The position numbers and the translations under genes were made by a program. A DNA stretch of 64,000 nt from an uncultured Gammaproteobacteria bacterium (GTDB taxonomy: Bacteria > Patescibacteriota > Patescibacteriia > UBA11705), in assembly GCA_964413735.1 (NCBI GenBank), contig CAYPSS010000002.1, positions 80,261 to 144,260 of the forward strand. Direction: 5' to 3'. Position 1 is the stretch's first letter. Each line of letters begins with the position of its first letter. A model generated the notes under the pieces. It saw nothing but the letters and a program-made list of their open reading frames with translations, searched no databases and was not told the origin of the DNA. This document shows positions 2,550 through 53,410 of this stretch, piece after piece.

Positions 2550-2619
2550 TTGTCACCCTGAGTAGCCTTTTTGTACATTGTCACCCTGAGTAACCTTTTT
2601 GTACATTGTCACCCTGAGC
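2550..2619. repeat. Tandem direct repeats, 28 bp x about 2.5 (TTGTCACCCTGAGTARCCTTTTTGTACA), followed by shorter reiterated GTCGAAGGGTG and GGGCTTC(G)ACAGCCT motifs up to about 2760
   Basis: Read directly from the sequence: copies at 2550-2577 and 2578-2605, and a partial copy at 2606-2619. There are no interspersed unique spacers, so this is not CRISPR-like. Confidence 0.85.
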
Positions 2620-2765
2620 TTGTCGAAGGGTGTCGAAGGGTGCTCGCCTCGTTTCGTGGGCGAAGCGGGTCGAAAAGGGTTGAAGTATGTATTGTTTAGT
2701 TGGGCTTCGACAGGCTCAGCCTGACAAATCGATGGGCTTCAGCCTAACACAACTACAATTTTTTT

Positions 2766-2800
2766 AAAGTGAAAAAGCAGCCCCGTTGAGACTGCTTTTC
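2766..2800 (-). terminator. Intrinsic terminator downstream of the high-GC gene
   Basis: Minus strand: AAAAGCAG-TCTCAACGGGG-CTGCTTTT followed by TCACTTT. Confidence 0.45.
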
Positions 2801-2886
2801 GTTGGAAATTTTTTGGAAGTGGATGAGGTTGTCATCACTGGGTGCTTGACGTTGCGTCAGCTTTCCCAGTGATCAGCGCACGACGT

Positions 2887-4002
2887 TCAGTCGCGCGCGC
2901 CCCACCCGTCGCGCCGGCGGTCCTTCTTGCCCCGGAAGCCACGGCGATCCCGACGGTCCTTCTTGTCCGTGACCACCAGGACCCCGTCTTCCATGGAGAA
3001 GACCCCCGCCAGCGCCGGATTCTTGAACCCGCGCTCGGAGTAGGAGGCCGCTTCGCGATCCTTGTCCAGCTTGCGCTGGACGTAGGTCCGCGTGCGCATC
3101 AGAGGCTTCACGATCATGTCCGTGAAGTCCCCCAGCTTCTCGGCCCTGTCCTCGAACCGCGGGTTGTCACGCTTCTTGAACGCGACCCAGTCGCGGTACT
3201 GGGGGAACATCAGTTCCGCCAGCACCACGGCGTGGACCCGCGGCATGATCAGGTAGACGGTCTCCCGCCTCTTGATCGTGACGACGCAGGGTTCTCCGCC
3301 CTTGGTCTTGATGAAGGGCTCATCGTTTCCCTTCACCGGTCCGTTGAGGCGCGCGCCGACCTGGGCCAGGAACTGCTCCATCGCGGTCTGGTAGACCGCG
3401 TAGGAGGACAGCTTCTCCAGCTGGTCCTGCCAGTCCTGACCACGCTGGAAGGCGTCCTTCGACGCCTCCTGCGCTTCCCGGATCTGGCCCCACACCGCCT
3501 GATGGGCGGCGTGGGCGGCCTCGAACTCGGGGGTGGCCATTTCGAACCACCCTGAGATGAGGTCAAGGCCCGCGTGAACCTTGTCGGCCAGCTGGCCGAC
3601 CGGTCCCGCCACCAGCTCGTCTTCCGACAAGCCGATCTCAGTCGCGGTCTCGACCAGCGGGGCAACCGCTCCGCGGATCTCCTCCGCCCACGCCACGCGG
3701 TTCAGGACGAACTCGGGGCTCAAGGTTTTGATGTCCTTGTTCCCCTTGGCCTTCACCCGAATTCCCCGCGCCATCGCGTGGGTCACGAACACCGCCCGCT
3801 CCTGGCCATCTTTCGTGACCAGGCCGTCGAAGTCCGTGACCAAGACCTCGGCATCGATGAGGGGGACGTCCTTGACGCCCTCGCCCTCTGCACACTGCAC
3901 CGTGATCAGTGAGAAGTTGTCCGGCTTGGCGCCGTACTTCTCGACGAACTGGGCCACGGTCATCGCCTTGCGCTCTTCGGGAACCTTCGTGATCTTCGCC
4001 AT
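2887..4002 (-). CDS. Hypothetical protein encoded by very high-GC DNA (about 65-68% GC), with an Arg-rich C-terminal tail; foreign or chimeric origin
   Basis: 371-aa ORF opening MAKITKVPEERKAMTVAQFVEKYGAK.... A GGAGG SD lies 7 nt upstream. Its high GC generates long spurious ORFs in every other frame (2842..3555, 3333..3665, 3581..4081 and others). The C terminus is RRDRRGFRGKKDRRRDGWGARD. No family recognised. Confidence 0.6.
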   Translation of the reverse strand: MAKITKVPEERKAMTVAQFVEKYGAKPDNFSLITVQCAEGEGVKDVPLIDAEVLVTDFDGLVTKDGQERAVFVTHAMARGIRVKAKGNKDIKTLSPEFVLNRVAWAEEIRGAVAPLVETATEIGLSEDELVAGPVGQLADKVHAGLDLISGWFEMATPEFEAAHAAHQAVWGQIREAQEASKDAFQRGQDWQDQLEKLSSYAVYQTAMEQFLAQVGARLNGPVKGNDEPFIKTKGGEPCVVTIKRRETVYLIMPRVHAVVLAELMFPQYRDWVAFKKRDNPRFEDRAEKLGDFTDMIVKPLMRTRTYVQRKLDKDREAASYSERGFKNPALAGVFSMEDGVLVVTDKKDRRDRRGFRGKKDRRRDGWGARD

Positions 4003-4338
4003 TTCAACACCTCCAAAAAACCTTTACAGACTAGCACTGCCCGTTAGACCACTTTTGGCCCAACTTTGGTTAGTGATATAAAATATATCTACAACCAAAG
4101 TTGGACCAATCGCGTTAAACTTTCCAAAAATATTTTAATGATCAATACGCCATTATAGCACACTATTATTATTTTGTCAATAGTCCCTGACAAATTTTAT
4201 TTAATTTGTTCTAATTTTAGACAAAATATTTTATTATTATTTCACAACAATAATCACTAACAATCATCACCAGATTGTAAATTTCTTTTAATCTGCTATA
4301 ATAATTGGCATAATAATAAACTGCTAATTTTTATAAAT

Positions 4339-25271: not shown

Positions 25272-25345
25272 TGGAGCGGGGCACGGGAATCGGACCCGCG
25301 ATTTATGCTTGGGAAGCACACGTATTACCACTATACTAGCCCCGC
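25272..25345 (-). tRNA. tRNA-Gly (anticodon CCC)
   Basis: Minus strand: GCGGGGC-TA-GTAT-AGTGGTA-ATAC-G-TGTGC-TTCCCAA-GCATA-AATC-GCGGG-TCCGATT-CCCGT-GCCCCGC-T-CCA. The acceptor stem is 7 bp, U8 is present, the D-loop carries GG, the discriminator is U, and CCA is encoded. The T-loop reads UCCGAUU, with C at position 55. Confidence 0.8.
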
Positions 25346-38383: not shown

Positions 38384-38851
38384 TTATTTCAAATTATTTT
38401 TTAATCTGTATTTTTCAAATCCTTTTCTAATCATCCGTTTCGCTTGAGGCCAGAGAAATTCATAATTATCCAATTCATATTCTTCAATCCATTTATAATT
38501 TTGATGTTCATCGCTTATTTTTATTTCTTGTCCCGGTGCCTCAATCAAATGAGCAATGGCACAAACCGGCATTTTTCTTTTTTGAGTGTACCAAATATCA
38601 TAATCTACCAAATCAATAACAGTAATACTTTCCAAACCGGTTTCCTCGAAAATTTCTCGCTTAAAAGCTAATAAATAATCTTCGTTTTTCTCAATTCTTC
38701 CACCTGGGATATCCCAAAAACCAGGATAATCTTTAAGTTCTAAAATTAAACATTTATCCCTATAAATAAAAATGCCAGCTAAAGTAACCCAGTATCGTTC
38801 CATGTTTTTTTCTTTTTCATTGGCAATTTTCAAGTATTCTTGATCATTCAT
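38384..38851 (-). CDS. NUDIX hydrolase
   Basis: GGRIEKNEDYLLAFKREIFEETGL is a Nudix box. Length 155 aa. Confidence 0.75.
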   Translation of the reverse strand: MNDQEYLKIANEKEKNMERYWVTLAGIFIYRDKCLILELKDYPGFWDIPGGRIEKNEDYLLAFKREIFEETGLESITVIDLVDYDIWYTQKRKMPVCAIAHLIEAPGQEIKISDEHQNYKWIEEYELDNYEFLWPQAKRMIRKGFEKYRLKNNLK

Positions 38852-38853
38852 AT

Positions 38854-39525
38854 TTATTTTCCGGAAATAATAATTACAAACTCACCTTTGGACATTTTTT
38901 TCACTTCCTCCAAAACCTCAGTGGCCGTGCCACGATAAATGGTTTCAAATTGTTTGGTTAATTCACGCGCCACGACAATTTGGCGATTTTTAATAACCGA
39001 AATTAATTCTTCCAAAGTTCGTAATATTCGATGTGTTGATTCATAGAAACCAACCGTAATTTTTGAATCTTCAATTTGTTGATAAAATTTTGTTCTTCCT
39101 TTATGCGGAATAAATCCTAAAAATAAAAATTTGTCCGTAGGAAAACCACTAACACTAAGCGCGGTAATAATGGCTGATGGCCCAGGAATGGGAATCACTT
39201 CAAAACCGTTTTTAATCACAGCTTCAACCAAAACCCCACCCGGATCAGAAATCCCCGGAGTTCCGGCATCTGAAACATAAGCCACATCTTCACCTTTTTC
39301 CAAATAATCAAAAACACGCTTAAAAACTTTTTCTCCACTATGTTGATGCAAAGCATATGCTGGTTTTTCAATTTGAAACTGTCCGGCTAATTTAGAAAAT
39401 TGTCGAGTATCTTCACAAAAAATTACGCTTACCTGTTTCAAAGTTTCTATGGCTCTCAAAGTCATATCCCCCAAATTACCTATGGGAGTAGCCACTATAT
39501 ATAATTTTCCTTTTTCATTTAACAT
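38854..39525 (-). CDS. rsmI: 16S rRNA (cytidine1402-2'-O)-methyltransferase RsmI
   Basis: LYIVATPIGNLGDMTLRAIETLKQVSVIFCEDTR is the RsmI/tetrapyrrole-methylase-fold N terminus. Length 223 aa. Confidence 0.8.
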   Translation of the reverse strand: MLNEKGKLYIVATPIGNLGDMTLRAIETLKQVSVIFCEDTRQFSKLAGQFQIEKPAYALHQHSGEKVFKRVFDYLEKGEDVAYVSDAGTPGISDPGGVLVEAVIKNGFEVIPIPGPSAIITALSVSGFPTDKFLFLGFIPHKGRTKFYQQIEDSKITVGFYESTHRILRTLEELISVIKNRQIVVARELTKQFETIYRGTATEVLEEVKKMSKGEFVIIISGK

Positions 39526-39621
39526 ATGAACATATTATAATTGTTTTTTTGAAATTTAGCAATAAAACATCATAATATCCAGCTTATTTTAGATAAAAAT
39601 TTACACAAAAAAACATTAACA

Positions 39622-39650
39622 TTGACAAATACAGCTAAGTATGTTATAAT
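39622..39650 (+). promoter_or_regulatory. Consensus sigma70 promoter driving the ncRNA below
   Basis: TTGACA (39622-39627), a 17-nt spacer, then TATAAT (39645-39650): perfect hexamers at optimal spacing. Confidence 0.7.
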
Positions 39651-39656
39651 TATAAG

Positions 39657-39908
39657 TATCGTTAAGTTCTTTTTCACTCCCTGTTTTGCCATGCTAGGGT
39701 GGCCCGGAGGTCGCTGGGGAGTGACGGCAAGTGTTGAGTTCAATGGTTTGGGAGAATGTTTCGCCAAACTACTAATGGCCTTTCAACCGCCATTGAACTC
39801 CACTTGTCGAAAAAGCATTGTTGCCGGAAGCCCTCGTGCTTTCGGATAGTATTAGTAACCGGGCTCGGACTAAAGCGTTGCTACGCCAAAGTCCGAGCCC
39901 CTTTTTTT
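39657..39908 (+). ncRNA. Structured ncRNA of about 250 nt with its own promoter and intrinsic terminator; family unassigned
   Basis: A GC-rich island (about 50% GC) in AT-rich DNA. Nested hairpins: CACTCCC...GGGGAGTG; an 18-bp stem CAAGTGTTGAGTTCAATGG / CCATTGAACTCCACTTG that encloses two smaller hairpins; and the terminator GGGCTCGGACT-N18-AGTCCGAGCCC followed by TTTTTTT. Only short antisense ORFs are present. It lies between the divergent genes rsmI and the methyltransferase. Confidence 0.65.
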
Positions 39909-39946
39909 ATTTAATGATATAATTAAATTGTAAATTTAAAACAACA

Positions 39947-40789
39947 ATGAAATCCACCAGGAACAAAACAATTACAGTTTCTCAAAAAGAAATTAAAAAC
40001 TTTAATGAGTTTTTTTATTTAAACAATAACTTCAAACCAAACACCATTTATTTTGGCAATGCTCTGCAAGAGATAAAAAAATTACCAAATAGCTTTATTG
40101 ATTTGATCATTACCGATCCTCCATACAACAATGAAAAAGACTTTGGCAAAGGAAAAGTGAAAATTTCAAGAGAAAGTTTCAAAGTTTGGTGTGATTCTTG
40201 GATTAAAGAATGCGCCAGAATATTAAAACCAAACGGATCAATTTATCTTTGCATTGATTGGTCAAATTCAGGAATGATTCAAGAATTGTTAAACAAATAT
40301 TTCATTGTTCGCAATCGTATTACTTGGAAACGCGACAAAGGGCGAGGTTCTAAAAAAAATTGGAAAAATAACATGGAAGATATTTGGTTTGCCACCAAAT
40401 CAGATTCTTATACTTTTAATATTGAAGCGGTTAAAGAAAAAAAACTGGTTATTGCTCCTTATGTTGATAAAAAAGGAAACCCAAAAGACTGGCACGAAGA
40501 AAATAATCAGAAATTTCGCCTTACCCACCCATCAAACATTTGGACTGATTTAACTGTCCCCTTTTGGAGCATGCCCGAGAACACCGAGCATCCGACCCAA
40601 AAACCGGAAAAATTAATTTCCAGAATTATCATGGCTTCATCAAATAAAAATGACCTTATATTTGATCCCTTCATGGGATCAGGAACAATGGCCGTAGTAG
40701 CAAAAAAATTAAACCGCCAATACTTAGGATTTGAAATAGAAAAACGGTTTTATGTTTTGCTAAATAAAAGATTAAAAAAATCCGATTAA
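39947..40789 (+). CDS. Beta-class DNA amino-methyltransferase (N6-adenine or N4-cytosine)
   Basis: Motif IV LIITDPPYNN precedes motif I FDPFMGSGTMAVVA, which is the beta-class order. Length 280 aa. No recognisable restriction endonuclease is adjacent. Confidence 0.8.
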   Translation: MKSTRNKTITVSQKEIKNFNEFFYLNNNFKPNTIYFGNALQEIKKLPNSFIDLIITDPPYNNEKDFGKGKVKISRESFKVWCDSWIKECARILKPNGSIYLCIDWSNSGMIQELLNKYFIVRNRITWKRDKGRGSKKNWKNNMEDIWFATKSDSYTFNIEAVKEKKLVIAPYVDKKGNPKDWHEENNQKFRLTHPSNIWTDLTVPFWSMPENTEHPTQKPEKLISRIIMASSNKNDLIFDPFMGSGTMAVVAKKLNRQYLGFEIEKRFYVLLNKRLKKSD

Positions 40790-40804: not shown

Positions 40805-41221
40805 TTAGTCAAAAATTTTTTTTGGCAAAATGCTGGTAATTGCCTTAACTTTTTCAACCAATTCCAGAAAAGCCACAAACAATTCCACTGTCCGGCGCGG
40901 ATTCAGAATTGCAAATTCAAATTCATTAAAATCAATATGAGAAAAAATCACATCAAGCCTTTTCAATGAATCAGACACCAAAACACAATCAACGAAATAA
41001 GCATCCTCACGCATTGATGAATTAATACACCCTATTTTCTTGGGATGTCTGAGAAAACAACTCGGCTCAGTTTTAATGCCAAAATAAATAACATTTTTTT
41101 CAAAACCCCATCTTGATCCAACAGATGACAACCCCTTATCACGACAAACAACAATTGTTCCTTCCGGTAAATGCCATAATTCTTCCAGCCGTGTAATTTT
41201 TTGTAAACGATCAAAGTTCAT
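40805..41221 (-). CDS. Hypothetical protein, tandem paralog A (start placed at the internal Met with a GGAGG SD)
   Basis: MNFDRLQKITRLEELWHLPEGTIVVCRDKG... is paralogous to 41313..41747 (FEELYSLPIGTVVVFKAKHD...). AAGGAGG lies 6 nt upstream of the ATG at 41221. Confidence 0.5.
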   Translation of the reverse strand: MNFDRLQKITRLEELWHLPEGTIVVCRDKGLSSVGSRWGFEKNVIYFGIKTEPSCFLRHPKKIGCINSSMREDAYFVDCVLVSDSLKRLDVIFSHIDFNEFEFAILNPRRTVELFVAFLELVEKVKAITSILPKKIFD

Positions 41222-41312
41222 TCTTTCCTCCTTCAAAAAGCAAAACCATATTAATATGGTTTTTTGTTTTTGTCAAAATAAAAACGCCTGACTTTTAGTC
41301 AGACGCAAATCA

Positions 41313-41747
41313 TCAGAACAAAAACCGCTGAGGAAATTTAACCAAGTTTCTCACTTGCCTTGCTATTTCAAATGTCTCCAACATAAAAGTAACATACTTC
41401 TCCGGGCTAAGCCGCTCAATAGTAAAATTATTAAAAGACGATTTTTCAATTCTATAATTAACCGTTTTTCCAGTTAAGCTCAAAAAAATACCAGAAACGA
41501 TTCGCAAACAACTAGTTTCATCAATAATTCCAGGCCTATCCGGATTATTAACGGCAACCATAAAACCTCCTTTATTAAAATCTAAAAGAACACTTCCATC
41601 ATTGGGCGCCATGATTGCCACATACTTTTCTTGTCCAAATCGCTTGAAAACTGGTGAATCATGCTTAGCCTTAAAAACAACCACTGTTCCAATCGGCAAA
41701 GAATACAACTCTTCGAAACTCTTAATCTCAAGGTTCTCATCAGCCAT
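41313..41747 (-). CDS. Hypothetical protein, tandem paralog B
   Basis: Shares the N-terminal EEL(W/Y)xLPxGT(I/V)VV motif and overall length (144 vs 139 aa) with paralog A. Has its own terminator hairpin at 41270-41310. Confidence 0.5.
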   Translation of the reverse strand: MADENLEIKSFEELYSLPIGTVVVFKAKHDSPVFKRFGQEKYVAIMAPNDGSVLLDFNKGGFMVAVNNPDRPGIIDETSCLRIVSGIFLSLTGKTVNYRIEKSSFNNFTIERLSPEKYVTFMLETFEIARQVRNLVKFPQRFLF

Positions 41748-53089: not shown

Positions 53090-53410
53090 TCCCAACTGGG
53101 ATTAAAACTGTTTATTAAATTAATTTTCCACCGTCTTTTCATTTTTACTTCCCACAAACTATCCAAGCACGGCGGGGTCTGGGGCGGAGTTCTTCGCCAC
53201 GATATATCCTTCTAACATGAACAGCACTCGCGAATAACGGAGCCCCAGGACTCCTGCCTACCGGCAGGCAGGTTTGTTACTTTTGGTCACAAAAGTAAAC
53301 ATAATAAAAGAATAAATTAATTGTTTTTTCTCTAAGGCTTAACTTGGGAATCCACGAAAACAAGCACCAATCTACCTGGACTGTTGGGCTAAACCCGACA
53401 GATACAATAA
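53090..53410 (-). ncRNA. GC-rich structured element between the hypA-like gene and pgk; candidate ncRNA (possibly a reduced RNase P-like RNA) or a structured pgk leader
   Basis: About 55% GC in an AT-rich context. Minus-strand reading contains GGCAGGAGUCCUGGGGCUCC (compare RNase P CR-I GGCAGGAAAGUCCGGGCUCC). About 90 nt further 3' it contains CCCCAGACCCCGCCGUGCUUGG, which can pair with the CR-I-like strand as a P4-like helix and resembles CR-V ACAGAACCCGGCUUA. Perfect hairpins include CCTGCC-TACC-GGCAGG and GTTACTTTTG-TGACC-AAAAGTAAC. No ORF. Confidence 0.3.

Follow-up and report, generated by a model that had tools for sequence, protein, structure and literature searches.

A predicted RNA gene between rsmI and a DNA methyltransferase gene

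In the 64,000-nucleotide (nt) stretch of contig CAYPSS010000002.1 analysed here (hereafter the window), rsmI and an N6_N4 DNA methyltransferase gene are separated by a 421-nt gap, in which lies a unit of about 250 nt with the anatomy of an independent RNA gene. It has its own promoter and its own intrinsic terminator, overlaps no coding gene, and has both signals in eight contigs from other strains of the same species. We conclude that it is an orphan small RNA (sRNA) gene; a new conserved RNA class is not supported. The features of the locus are as follows.

38854-39525, minus strand: rsmI (16S rRNA C1402 2'-O-methyltransferase; Pfam TP_methylase), divergent from the RNA
39622-39627, plus strand: -35 hexamer TTGACA, part of a 12/12 consensus match
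39642-39650, plus strand: extended -10 element, TGtTATAAT (TG at 39642-39643, TATAAT at 39645-39650), invariant in the eight strain contigs
39657-39908, plus strand: predicted primary transcript of about 250 nt, placed by promoter and terminator geometry
39657-39673, plus strand: 5' single-stranded U-rich tail, UAUCGUUAAGUUCUUUU; unpaired probability mostly >0.5
39674-39724, plus strand: predicted hairpin H1, 51 nt, with an outer stem of 9 base pairs (bp), UCACUCCCU / GGGGAGUGA
39725-39809, plus strand: predicted hairpin H2, 85 nt, with an apical GCCA-N9-UGGC and an internal loop
39815-39844, plus strand: predicted hairpins H3 (GCR-UUGU-UGC) and H4 (7-bp stem, loop CCUCGU)
39849-39860, plus strand: A/U-rich single-stranded linker before the terminator, AGUAUUAGUAAC; unpaired probability mostly >0.5, one U/C strain variant
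39861-39908, plus strand: intrinsic terminator, an 11-bp G+C-rich stem enclosing a 4-bp one, followed by C and U7; -27.5 kcal/mol
39915-39923, plus strand: putative extended -10 element of the methyltransferase gene, TGaTATAAT, repeating the ATGnTATAATTA motif of the RNA promoter
39947-40789, plus strand: N6_N4 (CcrM-like) DNA methyltransferase gene (Pfam), with no recognised restriction partner alongside

The promoter scores 12/12, with a 17-nt spacer between TTGACA and TATAAT, and adds the TG extension. Exact TTGACA-N17-TATAAT occurs at two sites in the 64-kb window, against 0.03 expected from shuffled sequences, which bears out the perfect sigma70 promoter claimed in an earlier sequence-only reading of this DNA. 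Transcription is predicted to start at 39656-39658, 6-8 nt after the -10 element, and to end within the U-tract. The strong terminator claimed by the same reading is also present: its arms, GGGCUCGGACU and AGUCCGAGCCC, pair 39861-39871 with 39890-39900, and T7 lies at 39902-39908. A simple terminator scan overlooked this element solely through its 18-nt 'loop', the limit of the scan being 8 nt. Since promoter and terminator agree, and on the minus strand the hairpin is not followed by a U-run, the unit is read in the plus direction. The earlier description of an RNA lying between divergent genes is true of rsmI and the methyltransferase gene, but the RNA shares the orientation of the latter and ends 39 nt before its ATG.

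Transcription of the unit, the ends of the RNA, its abundance and its action in trans are inferred; the prediction of high expression comes from the promoter alone.

Fold and coding capacity

The unit is an island of about 50% G+C (0.41-0.53 over 39600-39900), against 0.23-0.35 in its flanks; the GC content of the window is 36%. The 252 nt of 39657-39908 on the plus strand have a predicted minimum free energy (MFE) of -102.2 kcal/mol (z = -5.88), a stability that not one of 200 dinucleotide shuffles equals. For the opposite strand the fold is weaker (-89.2 kcal/mol, z = -4.57). With this fold and the full anatomy in place, the claim of an independent transcription unit of about 250 nt holds. 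The MFE and centroid structures are both a string of independent hairpins, with 77 predicted pairs. H2 is built on a base of 9 + 12 (about 21) near-perfect base pairs, and the interior of H1 can adopt two near-isoenergetic folds, GGUGGCC/GGUCGCU or GCCAY/GUGGC. No internal direct repeats were found in the RNA.

The earlier statement that the unit has no coding capacity needs qualification, because two open reading frames (ORFs) overlap it: one of 75 amino acids (aa) that begins at a TTG inside the -35 element and one of 52 aa on the plus strand. The frame at 39652 has two possible starts, the ATG at 39691 and the GUG at 39720. What stands is that coding is not maintained between strains. The sole ATG (39691-39693) reads ACG in all eight contigs from other strains, and a 1-nt insertion in those strains (column 129 of alignment A2) shifts the frame, which would leave C-terminal halves with no relation to each other. 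A Shine-Dalgarno sequence at normal spacing is lacking, and GC-rich DNA is expected to contain open frames by chance. Because the ATG is lost and the frame is shifted by an indel between strains that are 98.7% identical genome-wide, the RNA is, on this comparison, noncoding.

Conservation within the species

Eight Logan contigs of this species, 96-98.8% identical to the window over 2-7 kb, have the RNA cassette in the same place. DNA sequencing runs that carry the species are SRR36368337-49, SRR19732722 and SRR29243433. Alignments A1 and A2 contain about nine variable sites in the 250-nt RNA, one in the promoter spacer and none in the remaining 170 nt of AT-rich flank. Across the eight contigs, promoter and terminator do not vary, apart from a wobble change in a single contig's terminator. 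The MFE stays between -99 and -102 kcal/mol in all strain variants, and the three substitutions at positions paired in the MFE structure (3/3) all stay paired. The variants that fall in helices are these.

39801, plus strand: H2, G-C to G.U, pair kept
39817, plus strand: H3, A/G variant, A-U or G.U, pair kept
terminator (one contig), plus strand: C-G or U.G, pair kept
39692, plus strand: H1, U/C variant, U.G or C-G, kept in the alternative (second) fold of the H1 interior

The 1-nt indel is also compatible with the fold, as the extra nucleotide of the other strains gives H2 one more U-A pair. The remaining changes between strains fall in loops or linkers.

Known RNA families

At gathering scores, Rfam 15 finds only a tRNA in the whole window. 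At E<=10, the interval 39500-40000 gives four noise matches of 14-20 bits (small nucleolar RNA, MicC and plastid families), which are driven by the terminator or by the AT-rich flanks. The cmscan comparison with Rfam, which the sequence-only reading had named beforehand as a check, thus places the RNA in no family at gathering score or E<=10. ARAGORN likewise reports no transfer-messenger RNA (tmRNA) in the window, where it finds a tRNA-Gly at 25272-25345 only.

The earlier exclusion of tmRNA, signal recognition particle (SRP) RNA, RNase P RNA and 6S RNA agrees with the covariance models, with ARAGORN and with the predicted fold. For 6S RNA, the covariance model (RF00013) has no match at gathering score in the window or at E<=10 in 39500-40000, and the long closing stem, central bubble and apical stem of the rod fold are absent, the two ends of the RNA sharing at most 4 bp. 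The SRP model is also unmatched, and the sole GGAA (39830-39833) is neither closed by a helix nor followed by GGAAGCAG. RNase P RNA gives no match at gathering score or E<=10 and its P4/CR-I element is missing, while tmRNA is rejected by the lack of a tRNA-like end and by both ARAGORN and Rfam. Tandem guide arrays of the TIGR-like kind and type III antitoxin repeats are ruled out by the absence of internal direct repeats.

The same gap in related genera

The closest relatives of the window's RsmI in protein searches belong to Candidatus Falkowbacteria, Magasanikbacteria and Kuenenbacteria, all of the Candidate Phyla Radiation (CPR)/Patescibacteria, and on this evidence the host is a Falkowbacteria-like member of the CPR. 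An identical RsmI occurs on one NCBI contig, the next relative is 75% identical, and others follow at 60-66%; an exact look-up of the window's RsmI and methyltransferase proteins returned no recorded entry. In these protein searches, the range of 75-100% RsmI identity contains no sampled organism besides one 869-nt contig. This sampling gap, besides fast evolution, limits the test for homologues.

The divergent rsmI-methyltransferase pair is kept in the nearest genera, represented by loci L001, L004, L011 and L099 (RsmI 60-66% and methyltransferase 66-77% identical), and the content of the gap differs in each. In L011 (Falkowbacteria RIFOXYC2_FULL_36_12), a perfect promoter heads a unit of about 480 nt (z = -5.7) that ends in a terminator; next come a 170-aa membrane ORF, a second perfect promoter with a 200-nt unit (z = -5.2) and its terminator, and then the ATG of the methyltransferase gene. 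L004 carries a unit of about 460 nt with a perfect promoter and one of 300 nt with a weaker TTGATA...TATAAT, and L001 has three or four promoter-headed units plus small ORFs. A near-consensus promoter drives GC-rich orphan ORFs in L099, and the gap of L048 holds one or more GC-rich small ORFs with a consensus-like promoter. Upstream of the methyltransferase gene, L001, L099, L100 and L101 have ORFs or AT-rich DNA.

The units of these relatives match neither Rfam, nor one another, nor the window RNA; when eight candidate units, taken from the window, L001, L004 and L011, were compared all against all, each matched only itself. Outside the window's species, perfect TTGACA-17-TATAAT promoters were found at 8 sites in about 100 loci, five of them inside the rsmI-methyltransferase gap. 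These five head ORF-free units with terminator-like hairpin ends, and the four that were folded have z = -1.8 to -5.7. That five of eight perfect promoters head such units indicates that the lineage uses consensus promoters for genes of this kind.

Several observations concern these units themselves. Between one and four such units, of 90-490 nt, occur in the nearest genera; their promoters are mostly consensus or near-consensus, their ends are terminator-like hairpins, and those folded have z = -1.8 to -5.7. The promoter-headed, ORF-free units span 2520-3925 in L011, 2885-3750 in L004 and 2590-3850 in L001, all on the minus strand. A unit in L101 (311-591, plus strand) lies not in the gap but about 1.7 kb upstream of that locus's methyltransferase gene. 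Unit 1 of L004 (3716-3250, minus strand) has three copies of GGAGGU-N5-7-GUG, of which the second and third run on into UACACNUCCGGUUUU, and it contains the mini-ORFs MHWP*, MRYTSGFP* and MYTSGFD*, each with a Shine-Dalgarno sequence. Unit 2 of L011 has GGAGG-N6-AUG encoding MRRGW*. The mini-ORFs of L004 and L011 could be leader peptides or parts of hairpins that sequester Shine-Dalgarno sequences. A resemblance to unit 3 of L001, seen by eye in a 5' hairpin with CUCCC...GGGAG-GAC-AAG, was dropped because its model score was not significant.

Because the gap units of relatives are unrelated, and because the window's other perfect promoter drives a GC-rich orphan ORF (see below), the locus behaves, as far as these comparisons go, as a variable hotspot for strongly promoted and compositionally distinct cargo, both RNA and protein. 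A bolder form of this idea, drawn from four lineages, is that in Falkowbacteria-like CPR bacteria the gap is a dedicated hotspot for rapidly turning-over, very highly expressed and mutually unrelated structured RNAs together with GC-rich orphan ORFs. We regard this as a long shot. Were it true, the window RNA would belong to a new kind of accessory RNA gene, serving for example host or phage interaction in these episymbionts, and would not be an ordinary riboregulator. That sister genera repeatedly carry units without homology to one another at this locus is the more intriguing aspect of the system.

Interpretation of the RNA gene

That the unit is a real transcribed noncoding RNA gene is quite probable. 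To the full statement, that it is a free-standing sRNA gene of about 250 nt that acts in trans, we assign a probability of roughly 0.55. On this reading, the TG-extended perfect sigma70 promoter would start transcription near 39657, the RNA would fold into its 5' U-rich tail, hairpins H1 to H4 and the A/U-rich linker, and transcription would stop constitutively at the very stable intrinsic terminator, leaving the downstream methyltransferase gene to be read from its own extended -10 promoter. By analogy with the Hfq-independent sRNAs of low-GC bacteria, its most likely role would be that of a stable, abundant RNA that pairs with mRNAs in trans. The 5' tail, the internal loop of H1, the loops of H2 and H4 (including CCUCGU) and the linker before the terminator would then be the pairing segments. 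One candidate pairing, of CAUUGUUG in the RNA with CAACAAUG at the start codon of the methyltransferase mRNA, was rejected, as its 8 nt are at chance level (estimated p ~0.1).

A number of results weigh against this reading. Conservation and covariation in relatives, to which the sequence-only reading had looked for evidence of function, are weak, as the RNA is conserved within one species only. Searches with nhmmer and blastn against 9 and then 88 rsmI loci (about 80 related genomes) found no homologue, the nearest genera included. A covariance model, R1, built on the strain alignment and run on 84 sources at default filters and on the eight closest loci with filters off, found terminator-like matches only, even in the syntenic gap. 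There are no compensatory changes among the strain variants, whose sequences are very close. All of the roughly nine variable sites are transitions, and the structure-preserving pattern has a chance probability of about 1/8. Strain divergence is 2.4-2.8% in the RNA, compared with 0.2-2.4% in neighbouring genes and 6.4-6.6% in the NUDIX gene; because the RNA diverges as fast as or faster than every neighbour but NUDIX, constraint on its primary sequence is low. Moreover, perfect constitutive promoters are found more typically on the genes of housekeeping or protein-binding RNAs than on those of conditional base-pairing sRNAs. The translation start region of the methyltransferase gene ranks only 35th of 66 in duplex energy with the RNA, and no target was identified.

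Searches for a source or a second copy were also negative. BLAST against phages matched the promoter alone, four exact scans of viral contigs gave no match, and a 20-mer scan of JGI metagenomes gave one chance match, in a contig of 63% GC. No second copy or donor sequence was found in the window, the related loci, phages, viral contigs or the metagenome scan. As judged by these searches, the RNA gene is restricted to one species-level lineage. The earlier reading had offered a lineage-specific or a novel structured RNA; the first description stands, whereas a novel structured RNA class is not supported.

Two rival explanations retain some weight, the first being that the RNA binds or sequesters a protein in the manner of 6S RNA, Ms1, CsrB or Y RNA, titrating RNA polymerase, a ribosomal factor or an RNA-binding protein. 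With a perfect constitutive promoter, the RNA should reach a high steady-state level, as 6S, tmRNA and 4.5S RNA do, and nearly all of the molecule is helical, with scant free sequence. Two similar GCCA-N8/9-UGGC hairpins, one at 39688-39703 and the other at 39763-39779, may form a pair of protein-binding sites. In 6S-type RNAs, structure is known to be kept while sequence is lost. The structure-bearing covariance model finds nothing in relatives, however, and a housekeeping partner would predict conservation past one species. In addition, 6S RNA itself is unmatched even at E<=10, and the long closing stem and central bubble are absent, the ends sharing 4 bp only. A sequestering role is, in our view, unlikely.

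It is also unlikely that the unit is expressed neutral cargo, by which we mean a drifting GC-rich insert in a variable hotspot, for example the remnant of a horizontally acquired cassette, with its promoter and terminator present by chance. This explanation accords with the variability of the gap, where L001, L004, L011 and L099 hold unrelated units or GC-rich orphan ORFs, with the rate of evolution of the RNA, which is about that of its surroundings, and with the window's other perfect promoter, whose GC-rich orphan ORF has just three homologues. The cassette is also flanked by a 9-bp inverted repeat, AAATTTACA / TGTAAATTT (39597-39605 and 39929-39937), but a repeat of this length is near chance in AT-rich DNA (estimated p ~0.1), and no donor or second copy came to light in the searches above. 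Drift is harder to reconcile with a fold far beyond what composition predicts (z = -5.9), with discrete helices in every strain variant, with the fact that no strain change breaks a pair, and with a promoter and terminator that are invariant in eight contigs save for one wobble change. The perfect 9-bp repeat belongs to a longer pair of 20 nt with 75% complementarity, which is compatible with an inserted cassette.

A cis-acting 5' leader, that is, a riboswitch or attenuator controlling read-through into the methyltransferase gene, is quite improbable. The RNA is co-oriented with that gene and its terminator ends 39 nt before the ATG, and in L011 and L004, too, the methyltransferase gene is immediately preceded by a structured unit with a terminator. 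However, those units are unrelated in sequence to the window RNA, and L001, L099, L100 and L101 have ORFs or AT-rich DNA in that position. No competing antiterminator is predicted: blocking the 3' arm of the terminator costs 19 kcal/mol, and the partners available to the 5' arm are weak. Rfam gives no cis-regulatory match. The sequence ATGATATAATTA (39914-39925) is a second copy of the extended -10 motif ATGTTATAATTA of the RNA promoter, and because this second motif lies between terminator and ATG, with its ATGnTATAATTA 24 nt ahead of the ATG, the methyltransferase gene probably has its own promoter.

An RNA of a conflict system, whether an antitoxin, an anti-phage RNA or one involved in host interaction, would explain abundance together with fast turnover. 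It would also suit the combination of strong expression signals, species restriction and unrelated replacements in sister genera, and small ORFs without Pfam or PHROG match lie nearby (40805-41236 and 41313-41747). Yet no toxin-like ORF overlaps or adjoins the RNA in the expected geometry, repeats in the style of type III antitoxins are absent, no defence gene was recognised, and the neighbours are housekeeping genes in conserved synteny, making this explanation very unlikely. Finally, a small protein encoded by the unit can scarcely be credited: an open frame of 45-75 codons spans most of it, and L048 and L099 have GC-rich small ORFs with consensus-like promoters in the same gap, but the loss of the sole ATG in all other strains, the frameshift that leaves unrelated C-terminal halves, the lack of a Shine-Dalgarno sequence at normal spacing and the chance expectation of open frames in GC-rich DNA all argue otherwise.

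The interpretation as an orphan sRNA gene has some practical consequences. Reduced CPR genomes carry few recognisable regulators, and a delimited RNA gene is an easy first target for metatranscriptomics. The arrangement may also serve as a template for finding similar genes, in which a perfect TTGACA-17-TATAAT leads into a GC island that a strong terminator follows. For the present the practical value of the RNA gene is limited; it is confined to one species, with no predicted partner or target.

Neighbouring genes and other unusual stretches of the window

The other neighbours of the RNA gene are housekeeping genes in syntenic order, namely NUDIX, Ham1, metG, cvpA, tatD and ATP synthase (atp) genes. 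The NUDIX gene (38384-38851) differs by 6.4-6.6% between strains, marking a local hotspot of divergence or recombination. A replication origin or a dif-type DNA site at the RNA locus was considered and rejected, as there is no skew or strand switch. The methyltransferase (39947-40789) is 66-77% identical across CPR lineages and 52-57% identical in Alphaproteobacteria, Chloroflexia and other groups, which is unusually conserved for a gene without a recognised restriction partner beside it, and its synteny with rsmI and Ham1 is kept. This conservation and synteny suggest that it is a CcrM-like housekeeping methylase in these CPR bacteria.

Two other stretches of the window stand out in composition. 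One is an ORF of 371 aa at 2887-4002 on the minus strand, about 65-70% GC by eye, with a 120-nt segment of 2561-4061 peaking at 72%. Its promoter (4180-4152, minus strand) is the second of the window's two perfect TTGACA-17-TATAAT sites, and its 5' untranslated region (about 4110-4055) has a long inverted repeat. The product matches nothing in Pfam or PHROG, and among 5.8 billion proteins just three homologues were found (52-70% identity, from Logan contigs). Just downstream of this ORF, 2550-2642 contains tandem repeats, a 28-nt unit present 2.5 times (97% match) and a 10-nt unit present 2.2 times.

The other stretch, 53160-53300 on the minus strand, is ORF-free, reaches 60% GC, and lies between genes of 84 aa and 393 aa. 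It contains the hairpins CCUGCCUGCCGGUAGGCAGG and CUGGGGC...GCCCCAG, has no Rfam match, and could be another unclassified structured RNA or a leader.

Comparison with known systems

A literature search on small or structured RNAs, 6S RNA or noncoding RNA in CPR/Patescibacteria found nothing relevant, and the window RNA is best compared with classes known from other bacteria. Like the terminator-containing 5' leaders of riboswitches and attenuators, it is a structured RNA that ends in a terminator directly upstream of a co-oriented gene. It differs from them in having no antiterminator fold and no family match, in the putative promoter element that the gene itself has between terminator and ATG, and in not being conserved upstream of orthologous methyltransferase genes.

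With SRP RNA (4.5S RNA or scRNA), RNase P RNA and tmRNA it has in common a GC-rich island in an AT-rich genome and strong expression signals, whereas it lacks the motifs universal to them (respectively, a helix 8 capped by GGAA with GGAAGCAG, P4/CR-I and the tRNA-like end). The likeness to 6S RNA and its analogue Ms1 extends to the abundance predicted from a sigma70 promoter, a length of about 200-300 nt, a high G+C content relative to the genome and fast sequence evolution. Unlike 6S RNA, the window RNA is not predicted to form a rod, and the 6S covariance model is unmatched at E<=10.

Its constitutive consensus promoter is atypical of conditionally induced sRNAs, the analysis brought out no conserved C-rich seed motif, and it has no sequence or covariance-model similarity in Rfam to the Hfq-independent sRNAs of low-GC bacteria, such as RsaE/RoxS and those of the RNAIII type. 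In its general design, however, the predicted RNA resembles this last group: it is a stand-alone gene with a sigma70 promoter and an intrinsic terminator, lacks a maintained ORF, has a narrow phylogenetic range, and folds into several stable hairpins that leave short C- or U-rich loops and linkers exposed.

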